A stretch of DNA of 50,309 nucleotides from Shigella phage Sfin-3, in sequence record MN296515; one strand, written 5' to 3'. Every line of letters begins with the position of its first letter. Positions within the stretch are counted from its first letter, which is position 1. Both the position numbers and the translations under genes were made by a program. This document shows, one piece after another, positions 12,279 to 40,852 of this stretch. Below the pieces are notes generated by a model, which saw only the letters and a list, made by a program, of their open reading frames with translations, was not told where the DNA came from and made no database searches.

Positions 12279-13238
12279 ATGACTACTAAAAAATTTGATG
12301 AAGCAGATAAAAGTAACGTTGAAATGTATCTGATCCAGGCTGGCGTAAAACAGGATGCAGCCGCAACAATGGGTATCTGGACCGCTCAGGAACTACACCG
12401 CATTAAAAGCCAGTCCTATGAAGAAGACTACCCGGTCGGCTCCGCTCTACGCGTATTCCCGGTTACAACCGATCTTTCTCCGACTGATAAGACGTTCGAA
12501 TACATGACCTTTGATAAGGTTGGCACGGCTCAGATTATCGCGGACTACACCGACGACCTGCCGCTTGTTGATGCCCTTGGTACTTCTGAGTTCGGTAAAG
12601 TGTTCCGTTTGGGTAACGCGTATCTGATCTCAATCGACGAAATCAAAGCGGGTCAGGCAACTGGTCGCCCACTGTCAACTCGTAAGGCAAGTGCGTGCCA
12701 GTTGGCTCATGATCAGCTTGTTAACCGCCTGGTGTTCAAAGGTTCCGCGCCGCACAAGATTGTGTCCGTGTTCAATCATCCGAACATCACCAAAATTACC
12801 TCCGGTAAGTGGATGGATGGCGCAACTCAGAAACCGGAAACGGCTGAAGCGGAATTGACTCAGGCGATCGAAACCATCGAGACGATTACTCGAGGCCAGC
12901 ACCGAGCTACCAACATTCTGATCCCGCCGTCCATGCGTAAGGTGCTGGCGATTCGTATGCCTGAGACTACCATGTCTTATCTGGACTATTTCAAGTCTCA
13001 GAACTCAGGTATCGAAATCGACTCTATCGCAGAGCTTGAGGATATTGACGGCGCAGGCACCAAAGGCGTACTGGTGTACGAAAAGAATCCGATGAACATG
13101 TCCATAGAGATCCCGGAAGCATTTAACATGCTGCCAGCACAACCGAAAGACTTGCACTTTAAAGTGCCTTGCACCTCTAAGTGTACTGGTCTTACAATTT
13201 ATCGCCCGATGACTATTGTCTTAATCACTGGCGTGTAA
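12279..13238 (+). CDS. major capsid protein (lambda gpE-like)
   Basis: 319 aa; position, size and flanking terminators typical of a highly expressed capsid gene; GGAGAAG RBS. Confidence 0.8.
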   Translation: MTTKKFDEADKSNVEMYLIQAGVKQDAAATMGIWTAQELHRIKSQSYEEDYPVGSALRVFPVTTDLSPTDKTFEYMTFDKVGTAQIIADYTDDLPLVDALGTSEFGKVFRLGNAYLISIDEIKAGQATGRPLSTRKASACQLAHDQLVNRLVFKGSAPHKIVSVFNHPNITKITSGKWMDGATQKPETAEAELTQAIETIETITRGQHRATNILIPPSMRKVLAIRMPETTMSYLDYFKSQNSGIEIDSIAELEDIDGAGTKGVLVYEKNPMNMSIEIPEAFNMLPAQPKDLHFKVPCTSKCTGLTIYRPMTIVLITGV

Positions 13239-14838: not shown

Positions 14839-15226
14839 GTTATCAGCGGCGGCGCGAGCCGCTTTTCTATCAAAGTACAGAGACTTTCCTCACTACATGG
14901 AAAACAGAAATTTCATACCGCCGAAGGATGGCGGGATGTGGCTGAGGTTCAACTACATTGAAGGGGATACGCTTTATCTATCCATTGACAGAAAGTGTAA
15001 ATCTTACATCGCAATCGTTCAGATCGGAGTAGTGTTCCCTCCAGGATCCGGCGTTGACGAAGCAAGATTGAAAGCAAAAGAGATTGCTGATTTTTTCAAA
15101 GATGGTAAAATGCTTAACGTTGGTTATATTTTCGAGGGTGCAATCGTGCATCAAATTGTTAAACATGAAAGCGGGTGGATGATTCCGGTTCGCTTTACAG
15201 TACGAGTAGACACAAAGGAGACTTAA
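14828..15226 (+). CDS. putative tail terminator/neck protein
   Basis: 132 aa; immediately upstream of tail tube gene. Confidence 0.45.
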   Translation: MHYELSAAARAAFLSKYRDFPHYMENRNFIPPKDGGMWLRFNYIEGDTLYLSIDRKCKSYIAIVQIGVVFPPGSGVDEARLKAKEIADFFKDGKMLNVGYIFEGAIVHQIVKHESGWMIPVRFTVRVDTKET

Positions 15227-15228
15227 TT

Positions 15229-15897
15229 ATGCACTTACCAAATGGCGCGCAAATTTTCGTGGAAACCTCTCGCGGAGAAGAGATTGAGGCAACCGCTATT
15301 ACTAACGCAGAAAATCCTGTTGCTACAGTTGCATCTAAGGGCGACTTAGTAAAAGGCGATTACGTTATTGTAACTCAGTCAACCTGGGCCAAGATGGTCA
15401 GTCGAGTGCTAATTGTTACTGACGCTCAGGAAACAAGCATCACTCTCGCTGGGATTGACACCTCTGATACTCTTGTTTTCCCGGCTGGCGGTACGATGAG
15501 CTTTGCAAAAATTACTGGCTGGACTGAGATTCCTTGTGTACAGGAGATTGGTAAGGACGGCGGCGAGCAGCAGTATTATACTTATCAGTGCTTGTCCGAC
15601 GATAAAGAACAGCAGATCCCAACGTTTAAATCTGCGATCTCGCTAACTTACACATTCGCGCACGAATTTGATAACCCGATCTACCCTATTCTGCGTAAGC
15701 TGGATTCTTCTGGTCAGGTAACTGCGGTTCGGATGTATGTTCCAAAAGCGAACGAGATGCGCATGTGGGCTGGTATCTTGTCTTTTAACGACATTCCATC
15801 TACGCAAGTAAACGAAATGGAAACGGTACAACTCGCCGTATCACTGAAGGGTGATTTCACTTTCGTTTCATCCGCTCTGGCATCACCTGGTGCCTAA
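15229..15897 (+). CDS. major tail (tube) protein
   Basis: 222 aa; AAGGAG RBS; position before chaperone/tape-measure genes; followed by terminator. Confidence 0.6.
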   Translation: MHLPNGAQIFVETSRGEEIEATAITNAENPVATVASKGDLVKGDYVIVTQSTWAKMVSRVLIVTDAQETSITLAGIDTSDTLVFPAGGTMSFAKITGWTEIPCVQEIGKDGGEQQYYTYQCLSDDKEQQIPTFKSAISLTYTFAHEFDNPIYPILRKLDSSGQVTAVRMYVPKANEMRMWAGILSFNDIPSTQVNEMETVQLAVSLKGDFTFVSSALASPGA

Positions 15898-15909
15898 ATC
15901 ATATCCACA

Positions 15910-15934
15910 GGGGGCTTGCGCCCCCTTATTCATT
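15910..15934 (+). terminator. rho-independent terminator candidate
   Basis: GGGGGC-ttgc-GCCCCC followed by TTATTCATTT (interrupted T-tract); after tail tube gene. Confidence 0.5.
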
Positions 15935-15973
15935 TCTGTAAAATCATCGTATCAAGTTTGCACTATTCTCTTT

Positions 15974-19929: not shown

Positions 19930-19951
19930 CCCGCCTTGCGCGGGTTTTTTT
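19930..19951 (+). terminator. rho-independent terminator
   Basis: CCCGC-cttgc-GCGGG then T7; same hairpin sequence as 22108-22130. Confidence 0.65.
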
Positions 19952-19992
19952 GTAGCTGTAGAATGGTTGCAGGTAAACAAGAGGAAAAATCA

Positions 19993-22107: not shown

Positions 22108-22130
22108 CCCGCCTTGCGCGGGTTTTTTTT
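22108..22130 (+). terminator. rho-independent terminator
   Basis: CCCGC-cttgc-GCGGG then T8; just before tail tip gene. Confidence 0.65.
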
Positions 22131-22178
22131 CGCCTGTATAATGAGTCCACCGATAAATAGCACAAAAAGGTAAACATC

Positions 22179-37412: not shown

Positions 37413-38564
37413 ATGTCACAAGCTAAAATCACTACCGAGCAACTTATCGAAGAGCGCATGAGCGGCCTTACACTTCGCGAGATTGCGGAAAAGTACGGTA
37501 TGCACATCCGCACTGTTGAAGCTCGTCACGCAAAACTTGCAAAGGAAGGTCACTTCCACGGTAACGAGCATGTTGCTAAGAACGTACCGGAAGGATTCAT
37601 GGTAAAAGGCACATCAACGATGATTCGCGGCGATGGGACCGAGGTAGTGCGATGGGTTAAGACCGATCAGGACCGTGAGAAGATTGCGGCAATGATGGAA
37701 GCAGCGCGTATTGCATTCTGTGAAGACTTGCCGCGAGCAAAACCAACTGAGCTACTCACATCGCAAGGGCTTACAACCGCTATTGGCAAGCTGGCACTCT
37801 ACCCGGTGTTCGATCTTCACATTGGCGCGCTTGCTCACAAGCATGAATGCGGAGAGAACTACTCTACAGACGTAGCGGAAAAAGTGCTGAATGACTTCTT
37901 TAACTACGCGATCGATATTGCCCCGAACGCAGAGAAGGCTGTTCTGTTAATCGGCGGCGACTTCCTTCACTCAGACGGTCTTGATGCTGTTACCCCGGCA
38001 AGCGGTCACGTTCTGGATCAGGATTCACGATATGCGAAATTGGTGCATGTGGCTATTCGATCGGTGCGACGAGCTATCGACAAAATGCTGACTAAACACA
38101 AAGAGGTCGAAGTTCAGGTTATCGAAGGGAACCACGACCAGGCCGGAATGATTTGGCTACGCGCTGCAATGGCTGCATACTATGAGGACGAGCCGCGAGT
38201 ATTCGTTGACGTTAGTCCTATGATTCTGCATAAGACCCGCTGGGGAAATACCTTGTTGGGATACACTCACGGTCACACGATGAAAAAGGCAGACACGCGA
38301 CTTGCAGCGATGGCGGCAGACTTCCGTGCAGACTTCGGTGAAAGCAAATACGTGTATACTCACAGTGGACACTGGCACCATCAAACAATCACAGAACACT
38401 CGTTAGGTATTGATGAGGTTCACGGGCAGTTAGGCGCGAAAGATGCATACGCCGCGCGAGGCGGGTGGCGCTCATATCGCCAGGCGGCGGTAATCGTTTA
38501 CGATAAACAGTTTGGTGAAATCGGTCGATTCATCTATCGTCCAGAAATGACAGGATCGCACTAA
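37413..38564 (+). CDS. HTH domain fused to calcineurin-like metallophosphoesterase
   Basis: 383 aa; N-terminal LTLREIAEKYGMHIRTVE (sigma-region-4/LuxR-like HTH); then DLH, GDFLHSDG, GNHD, GHTM, GHWHH phosphoesterase motifs. Confidence 0.65.
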   Translation: MSQAKITTEQLIEERMSGLTLREIAEKYGMHIRTVEARHAKLAKEGHFHGNEHVAKNVPEGFMVKGTSTMIRGDGTEVVRWVKTDQDREKIAAMMEAARIAFCEDLPRAKPTELLTSQGLTTAIGKLALYPVFDLHIGALAHKHECGENYSTDVAEKVLNDFFNYAIDIAPNAEKAVLLIGGDFLHSDGLDAVTPASGHVLDQDSRYAKLVHVAIRSVRRAIDKMLTKHKEVEVQVIEGNHDQAGMIWLRAAMAAYYEDEPRVFVDVSPMILHKTRWGNTLLGYTHGHTMKKADTRLAAMAADFRADFGESKYVYTHSGHWHHQTITEHSLGIDEVHGQLGAKDAYAARGGWRSYRQAAVIVYDKQFGEIGRFIYRPEMTGSH

Positions 38565-38598
38565 TTGCTAAAAATACCCGAATGGACTCGGGTATAGT
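38556..38598 (+). promoter_or_regulatory. composite promoter module (TCGCA-ctaat-TGCTA, 22 nt, -10 TATAGT)
   Basis: Palindrome 38556-38570; hairpin 38575-38594; -10 38593-38598; ATG 38628. Confidence 0.55.
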
Positions 38599-38627
38599 AG
38601 ACACATAGAAAATAAAGAGGACATATC

Positions 38628-38804
38628 ATGAAACGAGTTAAGTGCATCCGAAATGATTCCAAAACGCTTCCATTCCGCGTAAATCAGATCTATAGTGTTG
38701 GTTATGATTTCGGAGGTGGATTGTTTGAGATTTACGATGGTAGAGGTTCAACAATCCAAGCTCCTCTGAACGGTCATTACCTGGAATTTATTGAGCTAGA
38801 TTAA
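38628..38804 (+). CDS. hypothetical small protein (58 aa)
   Basis: ATG 38628 with AAAGAGG RBS after module 38556-38598; followed by terminator 38827-38856; below ORF-track cutoff. Confidence 0.45.
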   Translation: MKRVKCIRNDSKTLPFRVNQIYSVGYDFGGGLFEIYDGRGSTIQAPLNGHYLEFIELD

Positions 38805-38826
38805 CAATATCATTCATAACCTTACG

Positions 38827-38856
38827 GGCTGGCATGGTTTACATGCTGGCCTTTTT
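38827..38856 (+). terminator. rho-independent terminator before lysis cassette
   Basis: 10-bp stem GGCUGGCAUG/CAUGCUGGCC (two G-U pairs), loop guuua, then T5. Confidence 0.55.
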
Positions 38857-38859
38857 GCG

Positions 38860-38888
38860 TTGTATCAAGTAAATTTGAAGGTTAAAAT
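38860..38888 (+). promoter_or_regulatory. sigma70-like promoter for lysis cassette (TTGTAT-17-TAAAAT)
   Basis: -35 38860-38865, -10 38883-38888; follows terminator 38827-38856; 35 nt upstream of holin ATG. Confidence 0.5.
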
Positions 38889-38922
38889 CAACTCACTTGT
38901 TCAAAAAATATATGGTGAGATT

Positions 38923-39138
38923 ATGAAAGAATTTTTAACAGCGGCTACGTCCAGCACGGGCGGCGCTTCACTGGTAGGGGCGGCGACAGGGCAACTTTAT
39001 ATTGCTGGCGCTACATTCATTTGCTTTCTGCTTTTTGGTGCATGGGGCGCATACTGGAAGTATCGTGATAGTAAGGCAATTCAGGAAGCGTTAAACGATG
39101 GCGATCTAAATAAGGCGCTTAAGATTAGGGGGAGATAA
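38923..39138 (+). CDS. holin (single TMD, possible pinholin)
   Basis: ATG 38923 with GGTGAG RBS downstream of promoter 38860-38888 (track start 38860 lies inside the promoter); one [22 protein letters not shown]; precedes endolysin. Confidence 0.6.
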
Positions 39139-39626
39139 TGAGTTTAAAAAATAACGTTATAGGCGCATCGATAGGGGCCGCTTTGACGTTGACGCCTACT
39201 CTACTGGAACGAATCGAAGGTATAGAGTACGAGGTGTATTACGATATCGCCGGAGTACCTACCGTATGCAGCGGAATAACCGGGCCGGACGTCATACCTG
39301 GTAAGAAATACACTAAGCGAGAATGCGATGCATTACTGATAAAACATATCGGCGTCGCTCAGCGATACGTTGACAAGAAGGTTAAGGTTGAAATTCCGGT
39401 AACGATGCGCGCCTCACTCTACAGCTTTACTTTCAACGTTGGTACTGGCGCATTCGGATCTTCTACAATGCTTAAGCTAATCAATCAGAGTAAGCACAAG
39501 GAGGCGTGCAATCAGTTATGGCGATGGGTATACTACTACAATCCAAAAACCAAAAAGCGCGAAGTGTCTAGAGGACTCAAGAACCGACGCGCTGAAGAAT
39601 ACGCGTATTGCGTTAAGGAATTATGA
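39138..39626 (+). CDS. SAR endolysin (T4-lysozyme-like muramidase, GH24-like)
   Basis: 162 aa; Gly/Ala-rich N-terminal signal-anchor [17 protein letters not shown]; catalytic E-x8-D-x5-T ([16 protein letters not shown]). Confidence 0.85.
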
Positions 39627-40027
39627 TGAAACTGAAGAAAACGTGCATTGCGATTGCGGTGGCTGTTGGCGTTATTTCTCTATCCGGTTGCTCGACGGCA
39701 TCTGCTCTGAGCGGTTTAATTGGATCTAAACCGGAAGTTACGGCGCAGATTGGAGAGGAGAACACAAAGCAATTAGCAGGAGTAACCGCAAAATCCGAAG
39801 ATAAGCGAGATGTTAAAGTTGAGAAGTCCAATGTAGGAAAGGTTGACTCTTCCGTGAAAAAATCAATTGAAGTGTCAACCATTAAGGCCAACACAGTTAA
39901 CGCTGAAAGCATCACAGTCACTAAGCCTGGTAATTGGTACGACGCAATAGTTGTATGCACTCTCGTTTTAATTGGTCTGTTGATGGTTTATTTTTCACTT
40001 CGTAAGGACGGAAAAAAGGAGGCCTAG
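39623..40027 (+). CDS. unimolecular spanin (lipoprotein with C-terminal TMD)
   Basis: 134 aa; signal peptide with lipobox LSGC and C-terminal [20 protein letters not shown]; architecture of T1 gp11-type u-spanin. Confidence 0.65.
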
Positions 40028-40041
40028 CCTCCTTTTCTTTT
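40012..40041. terminator. bidirectional terminator between convergent spanin gene and - strand early arm
   Basis: AGGAGG-cctag-CCTCCT flanked by A5 and T-rich runs; spanin stop codon lies in the loop. Confidence 0.6.
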
Positions 40042-40255
40042 ATGCGTCTTCCCACATATAACTCTCGTTTGTGAGTTTTGCGTATTCGCGAACCTCAATC
40101 TCGCAGGTTTCGCCGTACATCTCAGCGACCTTCTTCTCGTTCGCTACCGCCGTTTCTTCAGTCCATCCATCAGCATTGCTGTAAAGTGTAGGAATCTCAC
40201 TGCTAGTGCCGTTAGAGTGGTTGTAAACGCGAACTACTAAAAATTTGTTAGCCAT
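40040..40255 (-). CDS. hypothetical protein (71 aa)
   Basis: Track ORF; AAGGAAAAC RBS; module 40293-40335 upstream. Confidence 0.55.
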   Translation of the reverse strand: MANKFLVVRVYNHSNGTSSEIPTLYSNADGWTEETAVANEKKVAEMYGETCEIEVREYAKLTNESYMWEDA

Positions 40256-40292
40256 GATGTTTTCCTTCAGGTCGTTTCATTTCGATGAAACA

Positions 40293-40335
40293 AATATACC
40301 CGATACGAGATCGGGTGTTTTAACAAAAAGTGCTA
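40293..40335 (-). promoter_or_regulatory. composite promoter module, minus strand (TAGCA-ctttt-TGTTA, 22 nt, -10 TATATT)
   Basis: Palindrome 40321-40335; hairpin 40298-40316; -10 40293-40298; ATG 40255. Confidence 0.5.
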
Positions 40336-40444
40336 TTTGTACCTTTTCACATGAAGGAGCAACTCCCCATCCTGATTGCAAAGGTTGTGTTCGCTGTCAT
40401 TGTTGGCCCTCATTGAAGTAAGTAACAGGCTGAGTAACCCCTGT

Positions 40445-40852
40445 TCAAATTCTTCCTTTGTAAGCTGGAGTCTTGCGCACAATTCGACGTTCCGATCTAT
40501 CAATGTTTCTACGTTCGCCAAACAAATCCTCATCACTCATCTCTCCAATATGCATCATTTCCCATGTATACCGATTGTTGTAACCATCAATACACATCAG
40601 CTTCATCATTACCGGGCGCTTAATCTTTCCCTTGCACCAGTAAACACCATCCTTGCGATCCAAGTAACCCTCAGTTACGCAACGAGAGCAAAACTCCTTA
40701 GATAGCGCACTTGTAAATTCACGGTGAGTCATTCCAGCAGCCTTAGCAAATCGCTCACTTTCCTTGTGGGCGTATATAAATTTCGCTATGTGCTGTCGGG
40801 TGTATTTGTCGTAACCTTCGCAGAACCTGAACAGATCTAAAAGAAGCAGCAT
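40445..40852 (-). CDS. hypothetical protein (135 aa, Cys-rich), operon partner of P-loop ATPase
   Basis: Track ORF; start 4 nt after stop of upstream ATPase gene. Confidence 0.55.
   Translation of the reverse strand: MLLLLDLFRFCEGYDKYTRQHIAKFIYAHKESERFAKAAGMTHREFTSALSKEFCSRCVTEGYLDRKDGVYWCKGKIKRPVMMKLMCIDGYNNRYTWEMMHIGEMSDEDLFGERRNIDRSERRIVRKTPAYKGRI

Follow-up and report, generated by a model that had tools for sequence, protein, structure and literature searches.

We conclude that the locus between positions 38826 and 40041 is very probably the T1-type lysis cassette of a Tunavirus, made up of three abutting and probably translationally coupled genes, and that this explanation covers the locus as a whole. 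A host-lysis set of this composition (a holin, a membrane-tethered lysozyme, and a one-piece spanin) has already been described for T1-like coliphages, and the only unannotated part is a small, unproven candidate promoter ahead of the holin gene. The window, by which we mean the whole stretch of 50,309 nucleotides (50.3 kb) that was analyzed, was placed by comparison of positions 38560-40300 with public records. DNA identity was 95.6% to Escherichia phage vB_EcoS_SA12KD (SA12KD). A further 67 T1-like phages matched, mostly at 90-94% and in 13 records at 80-90%, and all of these are Escherichia or Shigella phages; a distant search with positions 38790-39140 gave phage T1 at ~94% DNA identity. 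The matching records are classified as Drexlerviridae, Tunavirinae, Tunavirus. Based on these DNA identities and the taxonomy of the matching records, we take the window to be essentially a whole Tunavirus (T1-like) genome. The features of the locus and of its upstream flank are as follows.

38555-38598, plus strand: repeat-type promoter-like element (ATCGCACTAATTGCTAAAA, 19 nt, TATAGT), upstream of the SH3/DUF7244 gene.
38826-38856, plus strand: intrinsic terminator ending the apparent SH3/DUF7244 unit; 11-bp stem, 5-nt loop, T5 run.
38860-38888, plus strand: candidate sigma70-type promoter TTGTAT-N17-TAAAAT; predicted, with an implied start near 38895.
38914-38919, plus strand: Shine-Dalgarno-like GGTGAG, 3 nt ahead of the holin ATG; read directly.
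38923-39138, plus strand: holin gene, 71 amino acids; PHROG 2877; 71/71 identical to T1 gp13 ("pinholin class 2").
39138-39626, plus strand: SAR-type endolysin gene (GH24/T4-lysozyme-like), 162 amino acids; its start overlaps the holin stop (TAATG).
39626-40027, plus strand: unimolecular spanin gene, 133 amino acids from ATG 39626 or 134 from ATG 39623.
40014-40041, both strands: bidirectional intrinsic terminator common to the spanin gene and a convergent gene on the minus strand (40040-40255).

The identities of the three genes are settled by the identity of their products to T1 proteins. The curated T1 record (AY216660) labels these proteins "pinholin class 2," "SAR endolysin," and "u-spanin," and the T1-like cassette has been published as a pinholin, a SAR endolysin, and a u-spanin (PMC4559738, PMC11447400, PMC13164509). 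A preliminary description of the locus, which had read the genes as those of a holin, a SAR-type endolysin, and a unimolecular spanin closed by a bidirectional terminator, agrees with the T1 annotation and with the literature (the same three papers and PMC6139136), and every sequence feature listed in it was found, either exactly where it had been placed or within 3 nt. The significance of this agreement is small, in that a tool-free reading recovered a textbook T1 cassette and the right holin start. The genes overlap at TAATG (holin/endolysin) and ATGATGA (endolysin/spanin), and the order of holin, endolysin, and a spanin combining a lipobox with a transmembrane domain (TMD) was found in five of the six representatives of diverged lineages examined; in the sixth (L024), no spanin ORF was seen and the endolysin ORF was shorter. 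An Rfam search of positions 38400-40500 at a permissive threshold returned just two sub-threshold chance hits.

The endolysin is 98% identical to T1 gp12 (159/162), annotated as "SAR endolysin," and its best match in the PDB is R21 of phage 21 (3HDE; E 5.7e-34), with an alignment that is gap-free from residue 11 onward and shifted by 8 residues. It also matches PF00959 (E 1.7e-33). Because the alignment contains no gap at offset +8, the triad E27-x8-D36-x5-T42 of the endolysin coincides with the E, D, and T of R21, which we take to be its catalytic residues E35, D44, and T50. At the N terminus, K4 precedes a stretch, V7-L23, of 17 residues, none of them charged, with a Gly/Ala/Ser/Thr content of 53% and a mean Kyte-Doolittle value of 1.68; both the Gly/Ala-rich stretch read as a signal-anchor and the E-x8-D-x5-T triad of the preliminary description were recovered. 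The segment is short and, as judged by eye only, has no signal-peptidase-type cleavage site, and equivalent uncharged segments occur in all six diverged endolysin N termini examined. The best 19-residue Kyte-Doolittle mean is 1.13, which lies under the classical threshold of 1.6. We infer that the endolysin is of the SAR type from its homology to R21 and from resemblance, and its export and its release by depolarization are putative. The paper on phage TLS terms the SAR endolysin "predicted" (PMC11447400).

The spanin gene directly follows the endolysin gene, with its start overlapping the endolysin stop (ATGATGA), and is the last in the cassette. Its product is 76% identical to T1 gp11 (101/133) and matches PHROG 1804 "Rz-like spanin" (E 8.9e-46), and a search of Pfam and NCBIfam matched no family. 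T1 gp11 is the prototype unimolecular spanin, has the wild-type lipobox LSGC, and complements lambda RzRz1 mutants, and the periplasmic domain of its family has been reported to be mainly β-strand (PMC6139136). The spanin here carries the same LSGC lipobox, with its Cys at residue 22 of the 133-amino acid form (residue 23 of the 134-amino acid form), and the next residue (+2) is Ser and not Asp, fitting outer-membrane sorting. Toward the C terminus, a hydrophobic stretch of 19 residues (mean Kyte-Doolittle value 2.66) is followed by the basic tail RKDGKKEA. Cysteines are found solely at residues 7 (signal peptide), 22 (lipobox), and 111 (TMD), i.e. there is no periplasmic Cys. The earlier reading of the last gene as a unimolecular spanin, which had been based on the lipobox and the C-terminal TMD, is upheld by the homology to gp11 and the match to PHROG 1804.

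Two terminators, both of which are real and the second of which folds on both strands, bound the cassette. The upstream terminator, which had been proposed to lie ahead of the holin gene, was called by the scan, with its stem at 38826-38852 and its T-run at 38852-38856. It has a ΔG of -18.3 kcal/mol and a z score of -3.96, and none of 200 shuffles folded as well. The T1 and SA12KD records have a terminator at the corresponding place, and in all seven diverged lineages a hairpin (-13.6 to -20.5 kcal/mol) with a T-run is found ahead of the holin gene, followed by a leader of 59-80 nt. The hairpin at the other end of the cassette (40014-40036) folds at -14.1 kcal/mol on the plus strand, where it was called by the scan, and at -16.0 kcal/mol on the minus strand (z -3.23). 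A T-run past its core GGAGGC stem could be read directly on both strands, as expected from the preliminary description; the SA12KD record gives this terminator for both strands, the T1 record for the minus strand. Because the convergent gene 40040-40255 ends 12 nt past the spanin stop, this hairpin serves both genes. The spanin stop codon (TAG, 40025-40027) had been said to be held in the loop; two of its bases do lie in the loop (40024-40026, 3 nt), but the third is the first base of the 3' arm. Of the 12 plus-strand terminators that precede a gene in the T1 record, 7 are separated by no more than 8 nt from the ribosome-binding site that follows; read-through or hairpin-overlapping promoters must therefore be common in T1-like phages. 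Within the window, the late-region terminators at 15916, 19936, and 22114 carry TTGCGC-17-TAnAAT with the -35 hexamer inside the hairpin, and these terminator-overlapping promoters fit the late "transcriptons" described for T1 (PMC11447400).

Upstream of the first terminator lies a gene for an SH3/DUF7244 protein (38628-38804, plus strand; PF23896 DUF7244, E 8.5e-29), whose product is the stand-alone SH3 protein for which an accessory role in lysis has lately been proposed (PMC13164509). Ahead of this gene lies one copy of ATAGCACnnnTTGnTAAAA, a dispersed element that occurs 27 times in the window at up to 3 mismatches compared with 2.1 expected; the sole promoter-like site called by the scan tool (38547-38575) overlaps the element at 38555-38598. 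The dispersed element resembles the upstream part of a class of phage promoters, because 19 of its 24 copies with up to 2 mismatches have a -10-like hexamer exactly 19 nt downstream, against a background of 2.1% per position. The element has also been reported for phage TLS, with no function assigned to it (PMC11447400). We note that, as a subject in its own right, this dispersed promoter-like repeat is more interesting than the lysis cassette. Since the SH3 gene has a repeat-type promoter-like element ahead of it and a terminator behind it, and the holin leader contains no copy of ATAGCACnnnTTGnTAAAA, the SH3 gene appears to be a transcription unit in itself, apart from the lysis genes. That a strong terminator and a candidate promoter of another type part the SH3/DUF7244 gene from the lysis genes bears on the proposal that the SH3 protein is a lysis accessory (PMC13164509).

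The preliminary description had given the cassette a sigma70-type promoter of its own. The hexamers are present, as read directly (TTGTAT, 38860-38865; TAAAAT, 38883-38888), and are separated by a 17-nt spacer, but the -35 hexamer is weak: it matches the consensus at 3 of 6 positions, compared with 5 of 6 for the -10 hexamer (8 of 12 in total), and the site fell below the threshold of the scan tool and was not called. Further, none of the four promoters predicted in the T1 record is located at the holin leader, and the statistics of the site are modest. Scored with a rough position weight matrix, it comes 12th among the plus-strand sites of the 50-kb window, and no other sigma70-like site in the leader is better; 154 of 5000 shuffles (3%) of the 70-nt leader reached its score. 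We put the chance that the candidate promoter is functional at about one half, with read-through as the main rival. The rival, to which we would give somewhat less than an even chance, is that the cassette lacks a dedicated promoter and is reached by transcription that starts at the element at 38555-38598 or at promoters farther upstream and passes the hairpin at 38826-38852 through read-through or antitermination, and that TTGTAT-17-TAAAAT is a chance occurrence in an AT-rich leader. The points just given (the 3/6 match, the absence of a call by the scan tool, the 3% of shuffles, and the T1 record) are consistent with read-through, as are the -35 scores, which are poor in all diverged lineages, and the 7 of 12 T1 terminators that crowd the next ribosome-binding site. 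However, the terminator that would have to be read through is strong (-18.3 kcal/mol, T5 run), and the distance of 57 nt between it and the ribosome-binding site of the holin gene is the longest among the 12 plus-strand cases in T1. In 16 Tunavirus copies the -10 hexamer TAAAAT is invariant, with neighboring bases varying and the -35 hexamer being either TTGTAT or TTGTGT, and in four of the seven diverged lineages the top -10-like hexamer is located 26-29 nt past the T-run (7% of shuffles cluster as well). The sigma70-like promoters that overlap the other late-region terminators of the window (15916, 19936, and 22114) also argue against read-through. Inspection by eye showed no promoter embedded in the terminator ahead of the holin gene of the kind seen at 19936 and 22114: the loop contains TTTACA, but there is no usable -10 hexamer 16-18 nt downstream. 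A literature search for transcript maps of the T1 family returned nothing relevant.

If the candidate promoter is taken together with its surroundings, it is possible, although we hold this only tentatively, that the lysis genes form an insulated late unit, in which the T-run of a strong terminator is followed after 3 nt by a promoter whose -10 hexamer is good and whose -35 hexamer is poor by design. This layout would be kept across diverged Drexlerviridae and would differ from that of the repeat-type promoters (ATAGCACnnnTTGnTAAAA, 19 nt, -10) driving non-structural genes, including that of the SH3 protein. If this is true, a change from one class of promoters to another would govern when T1-like phages lyse their host, and the SH3 gene would share no transcript with the lysis genes. 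The site ahead of the holin gene is a testable promoter prediction that is unannotated in the T1 record.

The holin matches PHROG 2877 "holin" (E 1.9e-38) and is 100% identical to T1 gp13 (71/71), and a search of Pfam and NCBIfam matched no family. It is small (71 amino acids), and its gene lies directly upstream of that of the SAR-type endolysin, the stop of the one overlapping the start of the other. Residues 25-45 are the only segment at ordinary TMD hydrophobicity (best 19-residue Kyte-Doolittle mean 1.81). Residues 4-23 are uncharged and 80% Gly/Ala/Ser/Thr, with a mean of 0.84. The whole of residues 4-45 is a 42-residue uncharged run, which is followed by a basic C terminus, and this pattern is kept in all diverged holin homologues. 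The holin had been described as having one TMD, and this is contested: the note in the T1 record gives 1 TMD, N-out and C-in, whereas T1-type holins are described as class II pinholins with two TMDs in the papers on phages Sushi (PMC4559738) and TLS (PMC11447400). Either topology is compatible with a pinholin in which the first segment exits the membrane. The further claim that the holin is a pinholin partnering a SAR endolysin agrees with the T1 annotation "pinholin class 2" and with three papers (PMC4559738, PMC11447400, PMC13164509), but the label derives from the SAR partner and from resemblance. The holin may act like a pinholin, yet it does not appear to be a sequence member of the phage 21 holin family: it has its own PHROG (2877), and BLASTP against a phage 21 S sequence gave no alignment.

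The missing alignment with phage 21 S, together with the lack of a Pfam or NCBIfam holin family, would also fit a cassette that resembles lambda S/R and not phage 21, in which the holin forms large holes or is a single-TMD protein unrelated to pinholins, or in which the N terminus of the endolysin is not releasable. In keeping with this alternative, normal TMD hydrophobicity is confined to residues 25-45 of the holin (residues 4-23 having a mean of 0.84), the hydrophobic stretch of the endolysin spans 17 residues and stays under the Kyte-Doolittle threshold, and u-spanins are found alongside SAR and canonical endolysins alike (PMC6139136). We nevertheless consider it unlikely. The alignment of the endolysin with R21 begins inside the SAR region and the triad is common to both proteins; the uncharged Gly/Ala/Ser/Thr-rich N terminus is retained in six of six diverged endolysins; the uncharged run of the holin, with its 80% Gly/Ala/Ser/Thr content over residues 4-23, is like a SAR-type TMD1; and a pinholin-SAR system is what the curated T1 annotation and the three papers report.

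In a pinholin-SAR pathway, the holin would accumulate in the inner membrane and depolarize it at a set time, and the endolysin, exported by Sec, would until then stay inactive, tethered in the inner membrane through its weakly hydrophobic N-terminal signal-anchor. Depolarization would release and activate the endolysin, leading to degradation of the cell wall; for the endolysin, both steps are modeled on its homologue R21. The spanin would be anchored in the outer membrane by a lipid on Cys22 and in the inner membrane by its C-terminal helix, and would disrupt the outer membrane once the wall is gone, an activity shown experimentally for T1 gp11 and presumed for the copy here. Transcription of the cassette would start, with a probability of about one half, at the weak sigma70-like promoter 3 nt past the upstream T-run.

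The preliminary description had moved the start of the holin gene to ATG 38923, away from the mechanical ORF call, which runs from TTG 38860 to 39138 (92 amino acids). This start holds, as T1 and phage LeonhardEuler are annotated from the same ATG, but the product is 71 and not 72 amino acids long, the stop codon having been counted. The revision merely corrects the mechanical call, since public records already use ATG 38923. Further, the T1 record has a ribosome-binding site annotated at the position equivalent to GGTGAG (38914-38919), and homologues in the seven diverged lineages support a start at ATG 38923; in more diverged lineages the holin begins with MKDF or MRDF at the equivalent Met. 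A 92-amino acid holin beginning at TTG 38860, for which the frame is open both in this window and in T1, is almost certainly wrong, given that this codon sits 3 nt past the terminator T-run without a Shine-Dalgarno sequence, that in four diverged lineages (L017, L018, L021, and L024) the in-frame stretch upstream of the holin Met is 1-13 codons long and holds no start codon, that PHROG profile positions 1-71 of 71 are covered from ATG 38923, that all public annotations examined that call the holin gene (T1 and LeonhardEuler) begin at the equivalent of this ATG, and that Shigella phages Shfl1 and pSf-2 have one extra nucleotide in the A-run of their leader, so that the equivalent of TTG 38860 is out of frame, which rules it out. 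The 73-nt leader of the holin gene can form a small hairpin between CUCACU (38892-38897) and GGUGAG; because the fold is no better than those of shuffles (z +0.52), we do not propose translational control of the holin.

Finally, we compared the cassette with known systems. The relationship to phage 21 is seen in the endolysin, a homologue of R21 (E 5.7e-34) with an aligned E/D/T triad and a weakly hydrophobic N terminus that is 8 residues shorter than that of R21 according to the alignment offset. The holin resembles S21-68 in its small size, in the place of its gene just ahead of the endolysin gene, and in its layout, in which an uncharged N-terminal segment rich in Gly/Ala/Ser/Thr leads into a hydrophobic TMD and then a basic C terminus, but is without detectable similarity to S21 and, because it contains a single Met, without a dual-start motif. 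The spanin of phage 21 is of the two-component Rz/Rz1 type. Lambda Rz/Rz1 have the same role and the same last place in the lysis cassette, and T1 gp11 complements RzRz1 mutants (PMC6139136); here, in contrast, a single polypeptide combines a lipid anchor in the outer membrane with a helix in the inner membrane and has no periplasmic Cys. In phage TLS (Tlsvirus), gp67-gp69 are a syntenic holin, SAR endolysin, and u-spanin with an identical lipobox; compared with the T1 proteins, their reported identity or similarity is 55%, 61%, and 57%. Translation of the TLS holin may begin at either of two Met codons (M1RDFLLM2; PMC11447400), compared with one here. The T1 cassette gp13/gp12/gp11 (AY216660, CPTT1_067-069) has the same gene order, start/stop overlaps, flanking terminators, and LSGC lipobox. 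Compared with T1, the spanin is more diverged, with DNA identity dropping from ~94% to 76-85% past 39628, and the -35 candidate is TTGTAT instead of TTGTGT. The HNH gene (orf15) found upstream of the SH3 gene in T1 is absent here, and an extra convergent gene, encoding 71 amino acids, is present past the terminator.

We found that ATAGCACnnnTTGnTAAAA is a dispersed element in the window, with 27 copies at up to three mismatches compared with 2.1 expected (24-27 sites in all, depending on the mismatch limit; 24 at up to two). Copies on both strands include the following.

1854, 2374, 3669, 38555 (+): copies of ATAGCACnnnTTGnTAAAA
40336, 45330, 46438 (-): copies of ATAGCACnnnTTGnTAAAA

Among the 24 copies with no more than two mismatches, 19 have a -10-like hexamer (TATAGT, TATTAT or TATAAT in most cases) exactly 19 nt past the end of ATAGCACnnnTTGnTAAAA, against a background of 2.1% per position for such a hexamer. 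Judged from sequence, ATAGCACnnnTTGnTAAAA appears to be the 5' half of a candidate phage-specific promoter class; the repeat has been listed for phage TLS without an assigned function (PMC11447400).

We also note that the consensus of the copies has a CATCGAAAACGA-like motif 3' of the -10 hexamer and that, when ~45 nt past each copy was inspected by eye, a GC-rich inverted repeat was often seen within the 19-nt gap, placed either directly 5' of the -10 hexamer (ACCCGA..TCGGGT-ATAGT) or with the hexamer in its loop. A hairpin of this kind at 40316-40298 (-) was called as "terminator-like." Two of the stretches 3' of the repeat are as follows.

38574-38620 (+): stretch 3' of a repeat copy
40317-40270 (-): stretch 3' of a repeat copy

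The SH3/DUF7244 gene (38628-38804) has a candidate repeat-type promoter of its own and a strong terminator, all within 38555-38856, and thus appears to form a monocistronic unit apart from the lysis operon. This is relevant to the 2026 proposal that its product is a lysis accessory (PMC13164509). Gene content here differs from that of T1 in two respects. First, the HNH endonuclease gene that lies between the exonuclease and SH3 genes in T1 (orf15) is absent from the window (38564-38628). Second, the window has an additional 71-aa minus-strand gene (40040-40255; PHROG 27210), with its own candidate repeat-type promoter at 40336-40318, which terminates at a bidirectional terminator common to it and the spanin gene. 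Two further copies, possible antisense promoters, are oriented opposite to late transcription (the roles of the surrounding late-region genes were assigned by T1 synteny).

12224-12206 (-): repeat copy between plus-strand late-region ORFs, 5' of the ORF at 12279
15989-15971 (-): repeat copy between plus-strand late-region ORFs, past the ORF ending at 15897

Sigma70-like sites were found at terminators in two arrangements.

15916-15944, 19936-19964, 22114-22142 (+): TTGCGC-17-TA(A/G/T)AAT at intergenic late-region terminators
11344, 12200, 13216, 25573 (+): sigma70-like sites 5' of hairpins

At the three TTGCGC sites, the -35 element lies in the loop and 3' arm of the hairpin; the -10 element is ~10 nt past the T-run. 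The 22114 module of the window, TTTTTTTTCGCCTGTATAATG, has a near-identical counterpart in the holin leader of L018, a diverged locus (TTTTTTTTCGCCTGTATAAAG). At the other four sites, 0-2 nt separate the site from a hairpin and T-run that adjoin the ribosome-binding site of the next gene; transcripts from these candidate sites would have their 5' ends within the 5' arm of the hairpin and might escape the adjoining terminator. By synteny, the 12200 site appears to be the counterpart of the promoter predicted at 15062-15089 in the T1 record.

Compared with T1, the spanin gene (39628-40027; 76-85% DNA and 76% protein identity) is far more diverged than the holin and endolysin genes (91-97% DNA and 98-100% protein identity), and many of the differences fall in the C-terminal membrane helix. 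The spanin has two neighboring candidate starts in ATGATGA (39623-39628), from either of which the mature lipoprotein would be identical; the spacing of AGGA (39616-39619) favors ATG 39626. Public records give 134 aa for LeonhardEuler and 133 aa for T1 and SA12KD.
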